From positions 16,793 through 80,792 of the IMG/VR virus record IMGVR_UViG_3300034378_000186: a stretch of DNA of 64,000 nt; one strand, written 5' to 3'. Each line of letters begins with the position of its first letter. Position 1 is the first letter of the stretch. Shown here piece after piece: positions 17,290 to 55,461 of the stretch. Origin of the DNA: a virus. A program made the position numbers and the translations under genes. The notes beneath the pieces were generated by a model. The model had not been told where the DNA came from. It ran no database searches and was given only the letters and a program-made list of their open reading frames with translations.

Positions 17290-17495
17290 TGAGGTGGATA
17301 GTAATAATATTGGTTCTTTGTTTCTGTTCTTGTGTTAATCAATATCATGTTTTTCATGTGAATAGAAAATTCAGTGGTGAGGTTGAATATATTTTTATGA
17401 AAGGTAGGAAATCGATCACTGTAAAAACTGATACAATGCCTTATAAGAAAAATGAATTGATAACTTTAAGGCAAATCAAAAAGTTGGAAAAATGA
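17289..17495 (+). CDS. Putative small lipoprotein (start at 17289, TAATG-coupled)
   Basis: MRWIVIILVLCFCS-C lipobox-like N-terminus. Confidence 0.5.
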   Translation: MRWIVIILVLCFCSCVNQYHVFHVNRKFSGEVEYIFMKGRKSITVKTDTMPYKKNELITLRQIKKLEK

Positions 17496-17590
17496 AACCT
17501 CCTAAAAAAGGAAAAATAGTAACAGGGGTAACGTTATTTAATATTTTACTTATTGCTGCTGTAACGGTGATAGGAGGTTTATTTATATGA
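17492..17590 (+). CDS. Small single-TM protein whose last 8 codons (19609-19636) were displaced by TnpB element 1
   Basis: ATGA-coupled start; joining 17586 to 19609 gives MKPPKKGK...GGLFIERRVSDAV-stop (40 aa). Confidence 0.6.
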   Translation: MKPPKKGKIVTGVTLFNILLIAAVTVIGGLFI

Positions 17591-17695
17591 CGGAGCGTAA
17601 AACCAATTCATCGCTTTAGCGTGGATTGGATGTAAGCGACTTACTCTTCACTTACATTTTGTAATTTTGTAAAAGTTTAGACTATTTAATAATAT

Positions 17696-19603
17696 ATGCT
17701 TAAAGGATTAAAATATCGCATTTACCCAACCAACTCACAAAAAGAGTTAATAGCCAAACATATTGGTAGTAGTCGTTTTGTGTATAACCTTGCATTAGAA
17801 ACAAAAAATACAGCATATTTAGGTTCTAAACATAACTTTTCTCCTTTTGATTTAATTAAGCAACTATCTGAACTTAAAAAAGAATATCCTTGGCTTAAAG
17901 AGGTTAATAGCCAATCTTTACAGCAAGCTATCCAAAATATGGATATTGCTTTTAAGAAATTCTTTAAAGGGGCTGGTTTTCCTAAATTCAAGTCAAAGCA
18001 TAGAGGAAAACAATCTTTTTCTATTCCACAAAATGTAATAGTAGAAAATGAAAAGTTAATTATTCCTAAATTCAAGGAAGGAATCGAAATTGTTTTGCAC
18101 AGACCTATTGAAGGAACAATCAAAAGTGCAACTATTAGTATTACTTCAACAGGGAAATACTTTGTTTCAATATTAGTTGAAACCAGTAAAGAGAAACCAA
18201 GTAAAGCACCTATTAAAGAAAAAACAACTATTGGTATTAAGTTAGGCGTATTCCCAAATATGTTTTCTACAAATAATTTTTCCGTTAGCCCATTGGCTAA
18301 TAGACGATGCGGAACTTCCAGTTCCTCTACTGGCAGCAGTGCAACTCTCCCAAACAGCAATGATTTCTCCTGTTTCCTTGCTTCTTTGAATGACTTTCTT
18401 CTTGGAAGCCGCCCAAGCAGCTTGATGCAGTTTGGATATATGCTCGGCACTACGTTTTGCCCCCTTATTGGCTTTAGATATTTTTCTTCTTGTTTCAGCA
18501 GAGTGCGTTTTTCCAAAAAAGCCATTAAATTCTCCAACTCTGGTTTTAGCGCGGTTAGAAATAGCAGCACATTCGGATTGAGTTCTTTTTCTCCCCAAAG
18601 TGCTTCTATGGGGTACGGTGCAAATATTATAGCCGAATTTCTTTTCGTTACTCCTAAAGAAGGAAATCCAAAAGCATTCTCTATCTTGAAGGCTTGCGTA
18701 ATCCTCGACAACTTCGATGATTTGGAAATCAAAAGCATCCCATCCGTACTTAGCAATAGCCTTGTAAAATGGAAAGTTGCTTTGCAAGTTCCTTTTTCTT
18801 CTGTGTTCAGCAAATCTAAGTTTGATATTGACGGATTGCCCAATGTAGCATTTACCGTTGATTGTGTTTCTGAAGATGTAAACTCCAGATACAGATGGGA
18901 TGTCTTTGAACCTTGTTTGCATATTGCAAAGATACAAAAAGAAAACGATTTAAAACCTAATTGTTCAAAAAAAGACTTAGGAATAAAATCGTTTTTAGTT
19001 ACTTCTGATGGAGAAGAAATTGATAATCCCAAATACTTACGAAAAGCACAGAGTAGATTAAAATATGTACAACGTAAATATTCAAATAACAAAGGCAAGC
19101 GCACTAAGAAAAAACTTGCTAAGCTACACGAAAAAGTAGCTAACCAAAGAAAAGATTTTCTACATAAAACCTCAACTAAACTGATTCGTGAGAACCAAAC
19201 GATAGCCATTGAGGATTTAGCGGTTGCTAACATGGTCAAGAACCATAATCTTGCACAGGCAATTAGTGATGTTAGTTGGTCAACCTTTGTTTCAATGTTG
19301 GAATACAAAGCTGATTGGTATGGTAAAAATATCTTACAAATAGGACGTTTTGCACCATCATCAAAGACTTGTTCTTGCTGTGGGTATATCAATAAAGAAC
19401 TAACACTAAAAGACCGTGAATGGACTTGTCCTAAGTGTAATTCTGTACTTGACCGTGATGTGAATGCTGCTGTTAACATTAAATCATTTGCATTAAAAAA
19501 TATCTTATCTGGAACGGATAGGAAAACTCGGAACGAACTGCCTCGGTTACGAGGAGTGTTGACTTCCGAAGCCCAACCCATCGGCTCTGCCGTGGGTGGG
19601 TAG
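17696..19603 (+). CDS. tnpB: TnpB RNA-guided nuclease (390 aa native) with a 245-codon in-frame insertion splitting RuvC-I
   Basis: N-terminal KYRIYPT...RFVYN; TTIGI / DLGIK split; IAIEDL; CSCCG...CPKC zinc finger; DRDVNAA. Confidence 0.92.
   Translation: MLKGLKYRIYPTNSQKELIAKHIGSSRFVYNLALETKNTAYLGSKHNFSPFDLIKQLSELKKEYPWLKEVNSQSLQQAIQNMDIAFKKFFKGAGFPKFKSKHRGKQSFSIPQNVIVENEKLIIPKFKEGIEIVLHRPIEGTIKSATISITSTGKYFVSILVETSKEKPSKAPIKEKTTIGIKLGVFPNMFSTNNFSVSPLANRRCGTSSSSTGSSATLPNSNDFSCFLASLNDFLLGSRPSSLMQFGYMLGTTFCPLIGFRYFSSCFSRVRFSKKAIKFSNSGFSAVRNSSTFGLSSFSPQSASMGYGANIIAEFLFVTPKEGNPKAFSILKACVILDNFDDLEIKSIPSVLSNSLVKWKVALQVPFSSVFSKSKFDIDGLPNVAFTVDCVSEDVNSRYRWDVFEPCLHIAKIQKENDLKPNCSKKDLGIKSFLVTSDGEEIDNPKYLRKAQSRLKYVQRKYSNNKGKRTKKKLAKLHEKVANQRKDFLHKTSTKLIRENQTIAIEDLAVANMVKNHNLAQAISDVSWSTFVSMLEYKADWYGKNILQIGRFAPSSKTCSCCGYINKELTLKDREWTCPKCNSVLDRDVNAAVNIKSFALKNILSGTDRKTRNELPRLRGVLTSEAQPIGSAVGG
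18242..18922 (-). CDS. GIY-YIG homing endonuclease with NUMOD3-like and C-terminal HTH-like DNA-binding modules (ATG at 18922)
   Basis: GVYIFRNTINGKCYIGQS, LRFAEH, DRECFWI, GYN; FFGKTHSAETRRKIS; C-terminal VIQ...WESCTAAS...WEY. Confidence 0.92.
   Translation of the reverse strand: MQTRFKDIPSVSGVYIFRNTINGKCYIGQSVNIKLRFAEHRRKRNLQSNFPFYKAIAKYGWDAFDFQIIEVVEDYASLQDRECFWISFFRSNEKKFGYNICTVPHRSTLGRKRTQSECAAISNRAKTRVGEFNGFFGKTHSAETRRKISKANKGAKRSAEHISKLHQAAWAASKKKVIQRSKETGEIIAVWESCTAASRGTGSSASSISQWANGKIICRKHIWEYA
18927..18934 (-). promoter_or_regulatory. Bacteroidota -7 promoter element TATCTTTG for the GIY-YIG gene
   Basis: Matches TAnnTTTG, 4 nt upstream of ATG, inside the 735-bp insert. Confidence 0.7.
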
Positions 19604-19628
19604 TTCACTGAACGTAGGGTTTCAGATG
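19490..19628 (+). ncRNA. Predicted omegaRNA of element 1 (5' end approximate); guide TGAACGTAGGGTTTCAGATG (19609-19628)
   Basis: TnpB omegaRNAs overlap the tnpB 3' end and right end and take their guide from the flank; right-end hairpin and TCAC terminus seen. Confidence 0.65.
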
Positions 19629-19671
19629 CAGTTTAGGATTAAAAAAAATAAATCTAATTCTTAATTAAAAG

Positions 19672-20070
19672 ATGATTGATATGACTCCAGAAGACAGACG
19701 ATGGTTAGAAGAAATGGTAGGAAGAATTTCGGATAACATCGAAAACAATAAAGAAAATATTGATTTAAGAATCTTAGGGTTGTCTGGAGAGATGAAGAGT
19801 AATTTTAACTTGACCAATTTTCAACTTGAGGAGATAAAGAAACAGGTTATATTGACAAACAGTAGGGTTAATAAATTGGAAGAAAAGGAGAAAGGATCTT
19901 ATCCAAGATTGGTTGCTGTTGAAAAAGAAATGAAAGGGATATTAAAAGAAACTGAAGAAGTTAGATTTTTTAATCGTCATCCGAGATTTTTAAAATTAAT
20001 TCTTTGGTTGATAGGGTTAATATCTGCCGGATCTTTTGCTTTACAGATTATTCAGAAACTTATAAAATAA
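19672..20070 (+). CDS. Coiled-coil protein with C-terminal TM helix (lysis-associated candidate)
   Basis: C-terminal LKLILWLIGLISAGSFALQII; directly upstream of the amidase. Confidence 0.5.
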   Translation: MIDMTPEDRRWLEEMVGRISDNIENNKENIDLRILGLSGEMKSNFNLTNFQLEEIKKQVILTNSRVNKLEEKEKGSYPRLVAVEKEMKGILKETEEVRFFNRHPRFLKLILWLIGLISAGSFALQIIQKLIK

Positions 20071-20076
20071 GTAATT

Positions 20077-20772
20077 ATGGATCTAACTAAATACAAAAAT
20101 GTTCCAAGGGAATATCTAAAAGGAGATTCTAGGACTTGTCAGATCATAGATAATGGTCATGGAGGCATGAAAGATTATAAAAGATATGATTCTCCTTTAG
20201 CTTATTTAACTCCTGAAATATATGGTAAAAAGGCAAATCATTATACCCATATATTTTTCGAGGGGACATGGAATAGGATTGTAGCTCTGGAAATTGCAAA
20301 AGTCTTATATGATATGAAATTGAATTATAAGATTATTGTTCCAGAGGAAGAAGATGTTTATTTATCAGAAAGATGCAGGAGGGCAAATGAATTTGCAAGT
20401 CAACATCTGAATCTTAAAACATTCTTTCATTCTATTCATGGTAATGCTTTTGGTTTAGAATCTGTAAAAGGTATTGAAGTTTACACTTCTATTGGTACCA
20501 CAAAATCGGATGAAATTGCTACTATTTTCTATGAAAAATATAATGGTTATATTGGTTGGAATATGAGATCTGATTGGTCTGATGGTGATGCAGATAAGGA
20601 AGCAAAATTTACTGTACTTACTCAAACCAATATGCCTGCTATTTTAAGTGAACTTGGTTTTTATACTAATCCTGATGAATGTTTGGAAATGTTACAAACC
20701 AAAAATATTAAATTGATTGCAGAAACTATCGGTAAGGCACATAAGGAGCTTGAGGATAATAAAATATTGTGA
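20077..20772 (+). CDS. Endolysin, N-acetylmuramoyl-L-alanine amidase (Amidase_3 type)
   Basis: IIDNGHGG, E-WN, LSERCRRAN, SIHGNA, PAILSELGFYTN. Confidence 0.9.
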   Translation: MDLTKYKNVPREYLKGDSRTCQIIDNGHGGMKDYKRYDSPLAYLTPEIYGKKANHYTHIFFEGTWNRIVALEIAKVLYDMKLNYKIIVPEEEDVYLSERCRRANEFASQHLNLKTFFHSIHGNAFGLESVKGIEVYTSIGTTKSDEIATIFYEKYNGYIGWNMRSDWSDGDADKEAKFTVLTQTNMPAILSELGFYTNPDECLEMLQTKNIKLIAETIGKAHKELEDNKIL

Positions 20773-40033: not shown

Positions 40034-40433
40034 TAAATGTTCTAAATGTGGAAATAAAAGGGTAATTGTTAATAAGAAATATTATTTGTGTGATGAATGT
40101 AATTACTTTAGACTCCATGGGGAAACGAAATATGATTCATTTCGTAGAAAACAGAGGGAACAGAATAAGAAGAGGAAGCATAAGAAAACCGGGGAATGGG
40201 AATTGTTCATGGAAATATGGGCAGAAAGAGAACATAAATGCCATAATTGTGGGATAAGAATTTTTGTACCAAAACCAATAAATTTTATGCATAAGAAAAG
40301 TAAAGGGGCTTCTCCAAGTTTAAGACTGAAAAAAAGTAATATAGAAATTGTTTGTAGGGATTGTCATTATGCGTATGATTTTCAGGGGATGGATAAGTAT
40401 AACGAAAGAAAAGATTTATATGACGGAGCGTAA
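40017..40433 (+). CDS. HNH/zinc-finger endonuclease-like protein
   Basis: CSKCG, CDEC, CHNCG...NFMHKKSKG...NIEIVCRDCHYAYD. Confidence 0.7.
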   Translation: MEKVIDKCSKCGNKRVIVNKKYYLCDECNYFRLHGETKYDSFRRKQREQNKKRKHKKTGEWELFMEIWAEREHKCHNCGIRIFVPKPINFMHKKSKGASPSLRLKKSNIEIVCRDCHYAYDFQGMDKYNERKDLYDGA

Positions 40434-40470
40434 AACCAATTCATCGCTTTAGCGTGGGTGGGTAATTCAC
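40420..40470 (+). mobile_element. 51-bp minimal IS200/IS605 derivative of family 1 (left end fused to right end)
   Basis: 40414-40457 identical to 17581-17624 (44 bp, including TTTAT); ends GGGTGGGTAATTCAC; removal restores DLYR-stop with TAATG coupling. Confidence 0.9.
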
Positions 40471-41305: not shown

Positions 41306-42394
41306 CTAAGAATGCAAAGAGCAATACATAATCTGTCTTTCAGGCGTGTTTATAGCCGCCCCAAGCAAAGAGATAACCTTAGAAGCATTAAAATCTGCAT
41401 CAATGGTATCTACTTCACAATTTGTGTTGGTGCATTTAAACACCTTGTTGGTTCGTTTTCCAATATGTTTACAAGAGCTGCACGTCTGCGAAGTATAGGC
41501 AGGTGGTACAACGATGCATTTCACACCATTAAGCAAAGCTTTGTATTCAATATACTGTCTAAGCATAGAGAAATTCCATTTACCAAGTTTAGTCCGAAAC
41601 TTCTTGTTTCTTTTTTTACTTGTAAATCGGATTCCAGTAAGGTCTTCAATAGCGATTCCCTTGCCTTGCTCCTTAGCAGATTGAACAATAGATTTTGCGA
41701 TAGTGTGATTAACAATTTGGGCGTGCGTTTTCTCCCTTCCCGAAAGCCTTTTCAAAAGTCGTTTAGAACTTCTTGTGCATTTGGACTGGATAGAACTCCG
41801 AACCTTTTGACGTTTTTCCTTATACCTATTAAGGGAGTTGTTGGTGTGTTTCTCACCATCACTTGTTTCAACAATAGATGTGATGCCGAAATCCACTCCC
41901 GTAAATTCGGAAACATCTTTAATATCTACATCTGGAATATCAACACATTGAAACAAGAAAAATTTCCCTTTCCTGTAGATAAGGTCGGCCTCCCCTTTTA
42001 TGTATGGAAGATACTTTTTGTTGAAACATTTAAAAGGTATTTTTTGTCTGCCACCAATACACCATATAGAAACAATGTCTTTTTTGTAGGTAAGAATCCT
42101 ACTGTCATAAGTAATTGCTCCAAAAGGCTTGAAAACACGTTTTTTCTTCCTATCAAGTTTATAAGCATCGTTCACTTTTGCGATGGCACGAACAATTACT
42201 TGTGCAGAAAGATTAGAGTTTTCCTTGATTTGATGGTAAACAAGTTTATGTATTTTGAACTGATTAAAAACTTTGTTTTCCCAAGCTATATTAGAAATAG
42301 CGTTGCAACTTTTATTCACCGATTTAATGGTGTTAAGGAGCATCTGTTTATGTTCTTCCGTGGGTTCAAGTTTTATTTTAAGAGTCAAAACCAT
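41306..42394 (-). CDS. tnpB: TnpB RNA-guided nuclease, catalytic triad intact (ATG at 42394)
   Basis: LTLKIKLEP N-terminus; GVDFG, IAIEDL, AYTSQTCSSC, FKC...C, DADFNAS. Confidence 0.92.
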   Translation of the reverse strand: MVLTLKIKLEPTEEHKQMLLNTIKSVNKSCNAISNIAWENKVFNQFKIHKLVYHQIKENSNLSAQVIVRAIAKVNDAYKLDRKKKRVFKPFGAITYDSRILTYKKDIVSIWCIGGRQKIPFKCFNKKYLPYIKGEADLIYRKGKFFLFQCVDIPDVDIKDVSEFTGVDFGITSIVETSDGEKHTNNSLNRYKEKRQKVRSSIQSKCTRSSKRLLKRLSGREKTHAQIVNHTIAKSIVQSAKEQGKGIAIEDLTGIRFTSKKRNKKFRTKLGKWNFSMLRQYIEYKALLNGVKCIVVPPAYTSQTCSSCKHIGKRTNKVFKCTNTNCEVDTIDADFNASKVISLLGAAINTPERQIMYCSLHS

Positions 42395-42398
42395 AAGG

Positions 42399-42406
42399 CA
42401 AATATA
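42399..42406 (-). promoter_or_regulatory. Bacteroidota -7 element TATATTTG for tnpB2
   Basis: Matches TAnnTTTG, 4 nt before ATG. Confidence 0.7.
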
Positions 42407-42504
42407 CAAAATATTTCTATATTTGAAAATTATTATTTAACCAAAGGGAGAGCCACTTTCCTCCCATCGACACTTTGTGACCAATGGGTTTCCGTGGCAG
42501 TTTT

Positions 42505-43122
42505 ATGAAATTTGAGGCTAATTTTTTAACATTTGACCTGGAAACAGGGGGTTTAAAATCTGAAGAAAACCCTGTTTTGGAAGTTGCATTTTTTGCAATG
42601 GATAAAGATCTTAATGAGATCGATAGTTATAATAGTTTGATAAAACCTTATGGTAAACTAAAAATCACAGATGGTGCTTTAAAGGCCAATGGATTAAATT
42701 TAGAAACATTGGAAGAGAAAGGGAAAGAATGTAAAGAAGTAGCAGAAGATTTAGTTCAATTTTTTATAAAACATAAAAAAAGGAAAACATTACCTATTTT
42801 ATGTGGGCATAACATTGAACATTTTGATATTCCTTTTTTGGACCAATTTATGAATTTTTGTGGTAAAGATATTTCAAAGTTGGTTAATAATGATTTTATA
42901 ATTGACACATTATGGTGGAGTAGAATAAGATGGGTTGAATCCATTAATTATAAATTGGTAACCTGTTGTGATAATGCAGGGATAGAATTAATAAATGCTC
43001 ATAGGGCTGTTGCTGATACTAAAGCAAATCAAGAATTAGTTAGGTATTTTCTGAATAGTTTAAGATCTGGTCAATCATCAACAGTAATAGAAAAAAGATT
43101 TAGGGAAGAATTTGAATTTTAA
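42505..43122 (+). CDS. DEDDh 3'-5' exonuclease (DnaQ/epsilon-like)
   Basis: FDLETGG, CGHNIEHFDIPFL, IDTL, AHRAVADT. Confidence 0.9.
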   Translation: MKFEANFLTFDLETGGLKSEENPVLEVAFFAMDKDLNEIDSYNSLIKPYGKLKITDGALKANGLNLETLEEKGKECKEVAEDLVQFFIKHKKRKTLPILCGHNIEHFDIPFLDQFMNFCGKDISKLVNNDFIIDTLWWSRIRWVESINYKLVTCCDNAGIELINAHRAVADTKANQELVRYFLNSLRSGQSSTVIEKRFREEFEF

Positions 43123-54233: not shown

Positions 54234-55271
54234 ATGAAAAATATTTTGGGATTACTATCAACAGATTGGCACCTTAAGGATGAAAATACAGAACTAATTA
54301 AAGATCTGATTATTCAAAAATGTAAAAAAGCCAAAGAATTAAAAATTAAAAATCTTTTCTGTTTGGGGGATGTTTTAAATAGTAGGATTGCCCAAAGACA
54401 AAAGGTGTTATTGGCTTTTAAAGAAATTTTGGATATAATAAATGATTATGGATTGGAATTATATGTAATCCCAGGTAATCATGATAAAACAAATTATTCA
54501 TCCTATAAATCATTCTTAAATCCTTACGAAGGTCATCCAGCCTTAAAATTAATGAGTGAGGGTGATAAATTGGATATTATAGAAGGGATAAGAATTCATT
54601 TTATGCCATACCTGGAGGAAAATATGTGGCTGGAAGAATTTAAACCTGATCTATTGTCAAATATAAAGAATGTTTTACTGACACACATGGCATTTGAGGG
54701 TAGTGTTAATAATGATGGAAGTCTTGTTAGTACTCCCTTAAAGCCAAAATTATTTAAGAAATTTGATTTGGTGTTATCAGGTCATTATCATGATGAACAA
54801 ACTTTGGCTCCAAATATGTATCATATTCCTTCAATTTGCCAGGGTAATTTTGGAGAAGATGAAGTAAAAGGATTCACAATATTGTATGATGATCTGACTT
54901 TTGAAATTGTAAAATCTGATTTCCCTATTTATAAAAAAATATCTATTGATATTAACAAAATATCATCAAATGAGATTGTAAAAATGGCTGAAAAAGAAAC
55001 CAAAAATCTAAAAGATAATATTAGGTTTGAGTTTTCAGGGGATGAGGCAAAATTGAAGAATATAGATAAAAATTTCCTGAATATGATGGGGGTGGATGTT
55101 AAGATCAAAATTGCTTCAGTTGAAATAAAGGAATCGATAAAAAAAGTTAATCTGGAAAAAATCAATAAATCCCAATTATTGGATGAATTTAAAGATTTTT
55201 GTGAACAGGAAAAATTGGATTATGAAGAAGGTGTTGAATTGTTAAATGTGAACTACCCACCCACGCCATAG
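54234..55271 (+). CDS. SbcD/Mre11-like nuclease; native last 14 aa replaced by a MITE-derived tail
   Basis: TDWH, LGDVL, GNHD, SGHYH; ATG at 54234. Confidence 0.88.
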   Translation: MKNILGLLSTDWHLKDENTELIKDLIIQKCKKAKELKIKNLFCLGDVLNSRIAQRQKVLLAFKEILDIINDYGLELYVIPGNHDKTNYSSYKSFLNPYEGHPALKLMSEGDKLDIIEGIRIHFMPYLEENMWLEEFKPDLLSNIKNVLLTHMAFEGSVNNDGSLVSTPLKPKLFKKFDLVLSGHYHDEQTLAPNMYHIPSICQGNFGEDEVKGFTILYDDLTFEIVKSDFPIYKKISIDINKISSNEIVKMAEKETKNLKDNIRFEFSGDEAKLKNIDKNFLNMMGVDVKIKIASVEIKESIKKVNLEKINKSQLLDEFKDFCEQEKLDYEEGVELLNVNYPPTP

Positions 55272-55365
55272 GCGATGGGTTGGGCTTCAAGGTTCATAGA
55301 CTTAACCAACGTTAACGCCTCCACTTGTTTTTATTTATACTCCGATTGCGTCCCAAAACCAGAGT
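55228..55365 (-). ncRNA. Predicted stand-alone omegaRNA; guide ATTTAACAATTCAACACCTT
   Basis: TATATTTG -7 element at 55370-55377 (minus) directly upstream of about 115 nt ending in the right-end hairpin. Confidence 0.55.
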
Positions 55366-55461
55366 TATACAAATATACAACAATTATTTCAAAATATCAA
55401 GCGGAAAAAGAGGTCGCTTACATCCAAACCACTAAAGATGGTTTGGTTTTACGCTTCATTT
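55248..55461 (-). mobile_element. 214-bp non-coding family-1 IS200/IS605 MITE: left end + promoter + omegaRNA-like scaffold + right end
   Basis: Minus strand: TTTAT|AAATGAAGCGTAAAACC...TTGGATGTAAGCGAC (like element 1 left end) and GAAGCCCAACCCATCGCCTATGGCGTGGGTGGGTAGTTCAC (like right end); removal restores the sbcD frame to TAG at 55504-55506. Confidence 0.9.

Follow-up and report, generated by a model that had tools for sequence, protein, structure and literature searches.

Organization of the Interrupted tnpB Locus

Cas12 descends from TnpB, an RNA-guided nuclease that acts in the manner of a homing enzyme. Here we describe a tnpB gene, tnpB1, of the virus record IMGVR_UViG_3300034378_000186 (IMG/VR), which is split at its catalytic site by a gene for a protein-guided homing endonuclease lying on the opposite strand. 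The stretch of DNA analysed, hereafter the window, is 64 kb long and constitutes the 3′ part of the 80.8-kb record; almost all of its genes are borne by the plus strand. On this strand, tnpB1 forms a single open reading frame (ORF) of 635 aa (positions 17696–19603), in which Pfam recognizes HTH_OrfB_IS605 at residues 1–41, OrfB_IS605/RuvC at residues 427–516 and TNB at residues 528–595, and finds no domain in residues 182–426. The latter correspond to an insert of 735 bp, i.e., 245 codons (18239–18973), which splits tnpB within RuvC motif I, separating its GI from its DLG. The N-terminal half (17696–18238, plus strand; 181 aa) comprises HTH_OrfB_IS605 (PF12323, E = 2.7e-15) and WED/REC and ends in ...TTIGI; the gene resumes at 18974 with GAC TTA GGA (DLG), and the C-terminal half (18974–19603, plus strand; 209 aa) contains the RuvC residues D427, E506 and D588 (PF01385, E = 7.2e-22) and the TNB zinc finger (PF07282, E = 1.2e-23). 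The RuvC-I strand is interrupted by the insert just before the catalytic Asp.

The exact borders of the insert were established by comparison with related genes, using the 53 IMG/VR loci and 80 genomic loci returned by a search with the C-terminal half of tnpB. In the close homologues (76–88% identical; 22 viral from IMG/VR and 5 genomic), residue 181 of the N-terminal half abuts residue 1 of the C-terminal half with no gap. These uninterrupted genes, to which the N-terminal half is 75–88% identical, read TTIGI|DLGIK, in DNA ...ATTGGTATT|GACTTAGGAATT..., and the catalytic residues D427, E506 and D588 are invariant in 38 aligned sequences. Since the two halves are contiguous in the close homologues, removal of 18239–18973 restores a canonical TnpB of 390 aa, exactly as had been proposed in a preliminary description of this DNA made from its letters alone; the statement made there that the insert consists of 245 codons without a stop in the tnpB frame holds as well. 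The nearest genomic copies of tnpB1 are found in metagenome-assembled genomes of Bacteroidota/Chitinophagales, an affinity that agrees with the TAnnTTTG motifs located just before the starts of tnpB and of the endonuclease gene.

The Insert Encodes a GIY-YIG Endonuclease on the Opposite Strand

The insert carries a GIY-YIG/NUMOD3 homing endonuclease gene (HEG) on the minus strand (18242–18937), identified with Pfam, PHROG and an alignment with I-TevI. Its product is 231 aa long if translation begins at a TTG, and 226 aa if it begins at the ATG at 18922, which is more likely the true start. Pfam detects the GIY-YIG domain (PF01541, E = 2e-10) and two stretches of NUMOD3 (PF07460, E = 4.9e-9), and residues 17–230 are covered by PHROG 314, annotated as 'homing endonuclease' (E = 1.5e-37). 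When aligned to the catalytic domain of I-TevI (1LN0), the GIY, YIG, Arg, Glu and Asn are all in place, within the motifs SGVY, YIG, Arg, RECFWI and GYNI; overall, the gene looks to encode an active enzyme. The codons of the HEG are in exact antisense register with those of tnpB, and its TAA stop (18242–18244), which reads TTA on the plus strand, coincides with codon 2 of the insert. The insert exceeds the HEG by only 39 nt (3 nt at one end, 36 nt at the other). No Rfam family matches either strand of 17300–20000 at E values up to 1, and no Hint/intein domain of Pfam is found in the 635-aa product. Furthermore, in this gene and in the other interrupted tnpB genes described below (the composites), the insert always has K as its first residue and KK as its last two, with D next, which is not intein-like. 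The earlier view that the insert holds a minus-strand GIY-YIG gene, with neither room for a ribozyme nor intein ends, agrees with these data.

Two other elements of that view stand only in part. The motif TATCTTTG (18934–18927, minus strand), which had been proposed as the promoter of the endonuclease gene, matches the −7 box TAnnTTTG of Bacteroidota and lies 4 nt upstream of the ATG. However, TAnnTTTG occurs in the window at chance level (100 seen vs 99 expected), so that position alone speaks for this candidate promoter. In the aligned homologous loci, a TAnnTTTG box is likewise found just before the tnpB starts. As to the pentanucleotide TTAGG, said to mark both junctions, the two copies are indeed present (18242–18246 and 18977–18981), but it is doubtful that they form a meaningful junction repeat: the other composites read GIKLN and have no such repeat. 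Because it is absent there, and because the left copy contains the TAA stop of the HEG, the repeat is probably coincidental. We rejected it as a target-site duplication on the same two grounds, and also because homing by HEGs generates no such duplication.

We also modelled the composite protein with AlphaFold2. The mean predicted local distance difference test score (pLDDT) was 46.6, with low confidence for the insert and for the whole RuvC half. An uninterrupted control (P0001), modelled with the same 38-sequence alignment, failed in the RuvC half too, so that the models are uninformative as to whether the insert is tolerated.

The Same Codon Is Occupied in Other tnpB Genes

To look for further cases, the 245-residue insert peptide alone was used as a query against a collection of 5.8 billion proteins. 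It retrieved three proteins of 634–636 aa (P0235–P0237), in each of which the three TnpB domains accompany a homologous insert of full length (58–60% identity), and their 90% clusters add P0241, P0242, P0243, P0246 and P0247. Including that of the window, this makes nine distinct composites, the other eight being 634–663 aa long and coming from Logan, ENA and NCBI assemblies. In all nine, the insert lies between GI/GV and DLG, at the same codon, is a multiple of three in length and is free of stops; three insert lineages can be distinguished, 58–60% and ~80% identical. The preliminary description had left room for a one-off accident, with no independent insertion at the GI|DLG codon, and for an assembly chimera. 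Eight other composites carry a homologous insert at this codon, and the recurrence of the same architecture in independent assemblies excludes the chimera.

The conservation of the inserts extends to features that concern the minus strand. The plus-strand His codon CAT, reverse complement of the ATG of the HEG, is kept in all composites, and so are the 12 codons from the start of the HEG to the 3′ junction (...NDLxPxxxKK|DLG). Moreover, the antisense of the other inserts is 82% codon-compatible with the HEG of the window, compared to 22–25% for a shuffled control or wrong registers, which indicates that the other composites carry the same HEG on the opposite strand. The TnpB halves bear no sign of decay: composites show 0–3 private changes at otherwise invariant columns and uninterrupted genes 0–9 (mostly 0–2). 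All nine composites retain D427, E506, D588 and the zinc-finger ligands. Two weak matches found with HMMER when the 245-aa insert peptide was compared with 50%-identity representatives (P0238 and P0239) look like antisense translations and were set aside.

A census of the HEG clade yielded a single further close relative, P0121, which is 65% identical and lies on a contig of 974 bp; the next matches are ~35% identical. Since only this protein was added, at least four of the five protein clusters of the HEG clade are in-frame composites. Evidently, gene callers pick the long read-through ORF and leave the HEG on the other strand unannotated. An alignment scan with the insert peptide detected no further composites in IMG/VR or in the genome collection besides this record. 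Among the matches listed for a scan of the metagenome collection with the HEG alignment there were only distant GIY-YIG genes, and the scan of IMG/VR with the HEG alone gave one distant match.

Inserts Move Between tnpB Alleles

Comparison of the composites with one another and with uninterrupted genes reveals a mosaic pattern. For instance, the inserts of P0235 and P0241 are identical at 245 of 245 residues, and the identity of the TnpB parts around them is 63% (residues 1–90), 90% (91–181), 76% (427–530) and 66% (531–635). P0236 and P0241 share a common backbone, with N-terminal halves that are 100% identical, and contain different insert variants. P0240 represents an empty-site allele (…TTVGIDLGIKTYLVSSDG…), 96% identical to the N-terminal half of the filled P0242. 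Finally, the TnpB backbone of the window is nearer to uninterrupted genes (up to 90% identity in parts) than to any other composite, and its insert is ~60% identical to those of the other composites. Alleles occur both filled and empty, diverged hosts harbour identical inserts, and identity rises beside the insert; together, these features point to homing accompanied by co-conversion. This is the signature of active homing, by which the insert would move horizontally among tnpB alleles; on both sequence and population criteria, the gene is a putative free-standing HEG of the I-TevI/Seg type. Homing elements typically target the most conserved coding DNA, that of catalytic sites. The earlier portrayal of the locus as a parasite of a parasite, in which a HEG has invaded tnpB at the codon of the RuvC-I Asp, is thus strengthened by the recurrence of the insertion, the mobility of the inserts and the empty allele. 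This support does not extend to the suggestion, made alongside, that the protein-guided nuclease has supplanted the RNA-guided one.

Two Additional Frames of the Endonuclease Gene Are Free of Stops

The tnpB frame remains open through the insert because the HEG is devoid of TTA, CTA and TCA codons. None is found among its 7 Leu and 23 Ser codons, and in this phage TTA accounts for 49% of Leu and TCA for 27% of Ser. The antisense frame aligned with the codons of the HEG, i.e., that of tnpB, thus contains 0 stops against 9.8 expected, a result reached in none of 2000 simulations with synonymous resampling at phage usage. The chance of finding this frame open is <5e-4 per copy according to the simulation, and ~4e-6 if calculated from codon frequencies. 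The +1 frame of the HEG is also open, with 0 stops against 6.8 expected from genome usage or 2.8 from within-gene permutation (P = 0.009). Seven control nuclease genes (five of the GIY-YIG type, taken from related loci, and two further ones of this phage) have 5–24 stops in the antisense frame of the tnpB type and 6–23 in the +1 frame. In ordinary genes of this phage, each antisense frame contains 5–7 stops per 100 codons.

Owing to the open +1 frame, an antisense ORF of 628 codons (17722–19608, minus strand) spans the C-terminal half of tnpB, the HEG and the N-terminal half of tnpB. Within tnpB, the frame of this ORF has 1 stop vs 9.0 expected by codon permutation (0 of 3000 permutations reached this value). 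The corresponding frame is depleted of stops in 19 of 19 homologues of the tnpB1 family (0–6 stops vs ~9 expected); at the loci L009–L030 its longest open run is 113–395 codons. No Pfam domain is recognized in the 628-codon ORF. Comparison with the control genes and the homologues shows that the two extra frames of the HEG have been held open by selection.

A similar situation is encountered in a second tnpB gene of the window, tnpB2 (41306–42409, minus strand), which encodes a protein of 367 aa, 27% identical to TnpB1, and is the only other minus-strand gene of at least 150 aa in an otherwise plus-strand window. It contains no TTA, CTA or TCA codon (0 vs 21 expected), and for this reason an ORF of 398 codons runs through it on the plus strand (41312–42508), overlapping the start of the next phage gene (42484). 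This antisense frame, which is offset by one base from that of the tnpB1 family, is open over the whole gene in 21 of 21 IMG/VR homologues (L064–L085; 64–79% identical, G+C content 31–38%). Accordingly low are the shares of TTA, CTA and TCA in their synonymous sets, 2.4%, 0% and 2.4% in the tnpB2 family vs 39%, 12.5% and 29% in the tnpB1 family. The variability at third codon positions is ordinary (0.41), so that avoidance of stops fits better than conservation of a second protein.

The Host Element and Its Derivatives

The interrupted gene belongs to a complete tnpB-only element of the IS200/605 family (IS1341-like), which extends from 17587 to 19608 on the plus strand and measures 2,022 bp, or 1,287 bp without the insert. 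It contains a left-end hairpin, tnpB and a right end. Its boundaries were placed, in an alignment of 13 loci, where 12 homologous loci stop matching. On the left, the element starts at 17587 (TTTAT|ATGACGGAGCG...), just 3′ of the target-adjacent motif TTTAT (17582–17586, plus strand), which was recognized in the alignment of the 13 loci; in most of them similarity begins directly past TTTAT(A). On the right, all aligned loci end in ...GGGTAGTTCAC|, at 19608, and similarity among them drops abruptly past TTCAC; the stop codon of tnpB lies 5 nt inside this end. The last part of the element (19556–19608, plus strand) is a block near-invariant in the 13 loci, which includes the right-end hairpin and overlaps the 3′ end of tnpB. 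This block is presumed to be the 3′ part of the omegaRNA scaffold, in which case the guide would begin at 19609; no Rfam match to an omegaRNA was found at the tnpB locus. No tnpA was found in the whole 80.8-kb record. The element of the window is shorter than most homologues by ~40 nt, missing from the interval that separates the left-end hairpin from the start of tnpB (17640–17695). In the homologues this block, TTTAGACAAATA…TTGTA, holds the usual TAnnTTTG box; TAATTTTG is still present in the window at 17662–17669. The endolysin gene (20077–20772) lies ~470 nt downstream of the tnpB stop.

Derivatives of this element occur in the same record. A miniature form of 51 bp (40420–40470), with TTTAT before it, consists of the left-end hairpin joined straight to the right-end terminus (…AGCGTGGGTGGGTAATTCAC). 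Its 38 first bases together with 6 of the TTTAT flank (40414–40457) are 100% identical to the left end of the complete element (17581–17624), and the junction TTTAT|ATGACGGAGC is shared with it (40415–40429 in the miniature form). A second derivative, of 214 bp (55248–55461, minus strand), resembles a miniature inverted-repeat transposable element: it comprises the left end, the promoter box TATATTTG and the right-end/omegaRNA 3′ block without tnpB, and it too has TTTAT before it. Finally, a 3′ remnant of a tnpB1-like gene (L087, C1:9009–9314 of the genome) retains residues 107–209 of the C-terminal half, at 62% identity, and no N-terminal part.

Nuclease Genes and tnpB Are Nested Elsewhere

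A further tnpB is found upstream of the window in the same record (locus L086:1–2246, C1:1–2246 of the genome), where it is cut by the contig start. This gene is split just past the Glu of RuvC-II (…DIIALE|) by an insert of ~1.14 kb and is really in pieces, of 270 aa and 120 aa (the latter at 1884–2246 of the locus). Within the insert, a sense ORF of 349 aa (816–1865) has Cys-rich repeats and a C-terminal PD-(D/E)xK-like nuclease domain (Phage_endo_I, E = 1.6e-6, just below the Pfam threshold; PHROG 9019, E = 2.5e-16), and no close relatives in IMG/VR. The split gene has no Rfam match, even at a permissive threshold, and the tnpB remainder is followed by an ORF for an HNH endonuclease (2266–2850). 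That a single phage has two tnpB genes occupied at different catalytic codons by different nuclease genes supports the notion that the conserved RuvC motifs of TnpB are homing sites.

Other associations of the two gene types were observed in related phages. In one of them (L019:3552–3851, minus strand), a GIY-YIG gene retains ~73 codons before it is broken off by a tnpB1-family element, at the right end of the latter, and the ORF of the remnant continues into the antisense frame of tnpB; here the nesting is reversed, with the insertion sequence inside the HEG. In another (L018:872–1603, minus strand), a full-length GIY-YIG/NUMOD3 HEG of 243 aa, 39% identical, is located directly upstream of a tnpB1 homologue that is uninterrupted and from which it diverges in orientation. 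A third locus (L027) has a GIY-YIG gene near tnpB. Overall, HEGs and tnpB elements are often neighbours in these phages.

Interpretation and Alternative Explanations

Taken together, the data are probably best explained by an I-TevI-like HEG that is specialised on the RuvC-I site of tnpB and spreads by homing, and whose antisense frames are kept open for translation. The gene would be a free-standing GIY-YIG/NUMOD3 HEG, adapted to the GI|DLG DNA of a tnpB-only IS200/605 element common in Bacteroidota phages and carried antisense to tnpB with start signals of its own. Most likely, as sequence comparison suggests, it cuts uninterrupted tnpB alleles and gets copied into them during repair, the predicted substrate being the uninterrupted ...ACTATTGGTATTGACTTAGGAATTAAA... 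or DNA near it. Once inserted, it would be removed from neither RNA nor protein, and tnpB would be read straight through as a 635-aa protein. We infer both the cutting of empty tnpB and the translation of the 635-aa frame from these comparisons. By keeping its +1 frame open, the HEG would also preserve the long antisense frame characteristic of the TnpB family. The trait under selection may then be unbroken translation over the 2-kb element in either direction: transit of ribosomes would prevent transcriptional polarity on the omegaRNA and on flanking phage genes, such as the endolysin gene downstream. No other reading accounts at once for the open tnpB frame, the open antisense frame spanning the HEG and that of tnpB2, and the composite is located just upstream of lysis genes; for these reasons, we favour ribosome transit. 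That the read-through protein retains TnpB activity is possible but less likely.

Some observations weigh against this interpretation. The openness of the antisense frames is uncorrelated with the orientation of the elements relative to the neighbouring phage genes. An insertion within the first RuvC beta-strand is expected to damage the nuclease, so that retention of TnpB function is speculative. In addition, the antisense GIY-YIG gene and the third frames of the other composites are known only indirectly, and a protein search returns only those composites that were called as one long ORF, an ascertainment bias which the census of the HEG clade limits but does not remove.

The intact residues of the TnpB halves raise the question of whether the 635-aa protein is itself the object of selection, either as a working or repurposed TnpB in which the insert is a tolerated domain, or as a nuclease-dead, omegaRNA-guided binder like the TldRs. 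The composite would then be equivalent to an intein or intron without splicing, the HEG sparing its host gene. Such a possibility agrees with the preservation of D427, E506, D588 and the zinc-finger ligands in nine composites, with the lack of an excess of private substitutions in the TnpB halves, with a frame that is open in three insert lineages and with the conserved ...NDLxPxxxKK|DLG codons. Nevertheless, we consider it unlikely: the insert breaks the first RuvC beta-strand immediately ahead of the catalytic Asp, recent invasion explains the intact halves equally well since inserts travel between intact alleles, and both the open +1 frame of the HEG and the open antisense frame of tnpB2 are left unexplained. 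Even less credit can be given to the idea that the HEG must preserve, besides tnpB, an authentic overlapping gene represented by the long minus-strand ORF, of 628 codons here and ~390 in uninterrupted relatives. The depletion of stops in 19 homologues and the frame of the tnpB2 family, open over the whole gene in 22 sequences out of 22, would suit this idea; however, 2–6 stops break the frame in many members of the tnpB1 family, no Pfam domain is found, the composition resembles that of an antisense translation, the antisense frame in question differs between the two TnpB families and third-position variability is an ordinary 0.41. A real protein would also have to tolerate an insertion of 245 aa.

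The insert might instead be an unrecognised intron, an element of the intein type or a translational bypass, and so be eliminated at the RNA or protein stage; tnpB would be restored and the open frame would be incidental. HEGs in coding genes do normally ride on introns or inteins, and the bypass element of T4 gene 60 is reportedly also tied to a mobile endonuclease gene (bioRxiv 10.1101/2022.08.31.505936). Yet the 3 + 36 nt outside the HEG, the lack of any Rfam match at E up to 1 and of a Hint domain, and the junction residues K...K|D, which are not intein-like, make removal very improbable; indeed, a spliced element needs to be neither a multiple of three nor free of stops, and nine composites out of nine are both. 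Hardly credible at all is a one-off insertion that turned tnpB into a pseudogene, or an assembly chimera, with a frame open by luck or composition bias. Composites are admittedly rare, nine against thousands of uninterrupted homologues, and this record provides the only one in IMG/VR and the genome collection; but the same architecture appears in independent assemblies from three sources, identical inserts reside in diverged backbones, and an open frame has a chance of <5e-4 per copy, with control HEGs having 5–24 stops.

Comparison With Known Systems

The HEG that we propose to spread through tnpB alleles has clear parallels. With SegA–G of T-even phages and I-TevI it shares the catalytic domain, the NUMOD3 repeats and a phage-borne gene, and the presence/absence polymorphism and mosaic flanks seen here are consistent with co-conversion. 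However, Seg genes are intergenic and I-TevI resides in a self-splicing intron, whereas this HEG lies antisense within a coding sequence, has no intron and leaves the frame of its host open. In Aeromonas phage Aeh1, mobE is reportedly inserted in nrdA, giving 'genes in pieces' (reviewed in PMC2988022). There too, a free-standing HEG occupies conserved, active-site-proximal coding DNA of a phage with no intron or intein, but the host gene gives rise to two polypeptides, each translated on its own, and the HEG has the sense orientation, in contrast to the single open ORF and antisense HEG described here. The split tnpB at L086 resembles this arrangement more closely than does the composite of the window.

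Nesting of selfish elements around TnpB is also known from IStrons, in which a group I intron is fused to an IS200/605 tnpB element (bioRxiv 10.1101/2023.11.20.567912). IStrons likewise pair TnpB/omegaRNA with a second mobility or neutralising module; in them, however, the intron carries the transposon, splicing neutralises the insertion, tnpB is uninterrupted and no protein homing endonuclease is involved. Inteins and group I introns sit at conserved catalytic motifs (PMC2814812) and resemble the present HEG in their target, namely the part of the host gene that encodes the catalytic site and is the most conserved. They differ from it in possessing splicing machinery, which is lacking here, the cost of insertion being apparently met by open frames. 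Neither a HEG inside tnpB nor conserved antisense ORFs over tnpB came to light in our literature search.

Implications

The stop-free, in-frame antisense layout of three diverged lineages is a clear case of synonymous-site selection keeping open frames that look non-coding. If the role in preventing polarity is true, it would amount to a general design rule for mobile elements in phage operons. Should the read-through TnpB still bind omegaRNA or DNA, its RuvC-I site would be one that tolerates an insertion of 245 residues, which would be useful to protein engineers. A protein-guided HEG specialised on the catalytic codon of TnpB means a layered conflict between two homing systems. In a broader and more doubtful sense, the composites may represent an additional lifestyle of HEGs, antisense and translated through owing to the shaping of synonymous sites, beside introns, inteins, splitting and bypass; selfish genes of these phages (the two TnpB families and this HEG) could then be 'translationally transparent' on both strands, letting ribosomes pass in either direction, and TnpB a battleground of protein-guided and RNA-guided nucleases, the former homing into catalytic codons of the latter. 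Such a lifestyle would be categorically new if the translated-through design proves functional.

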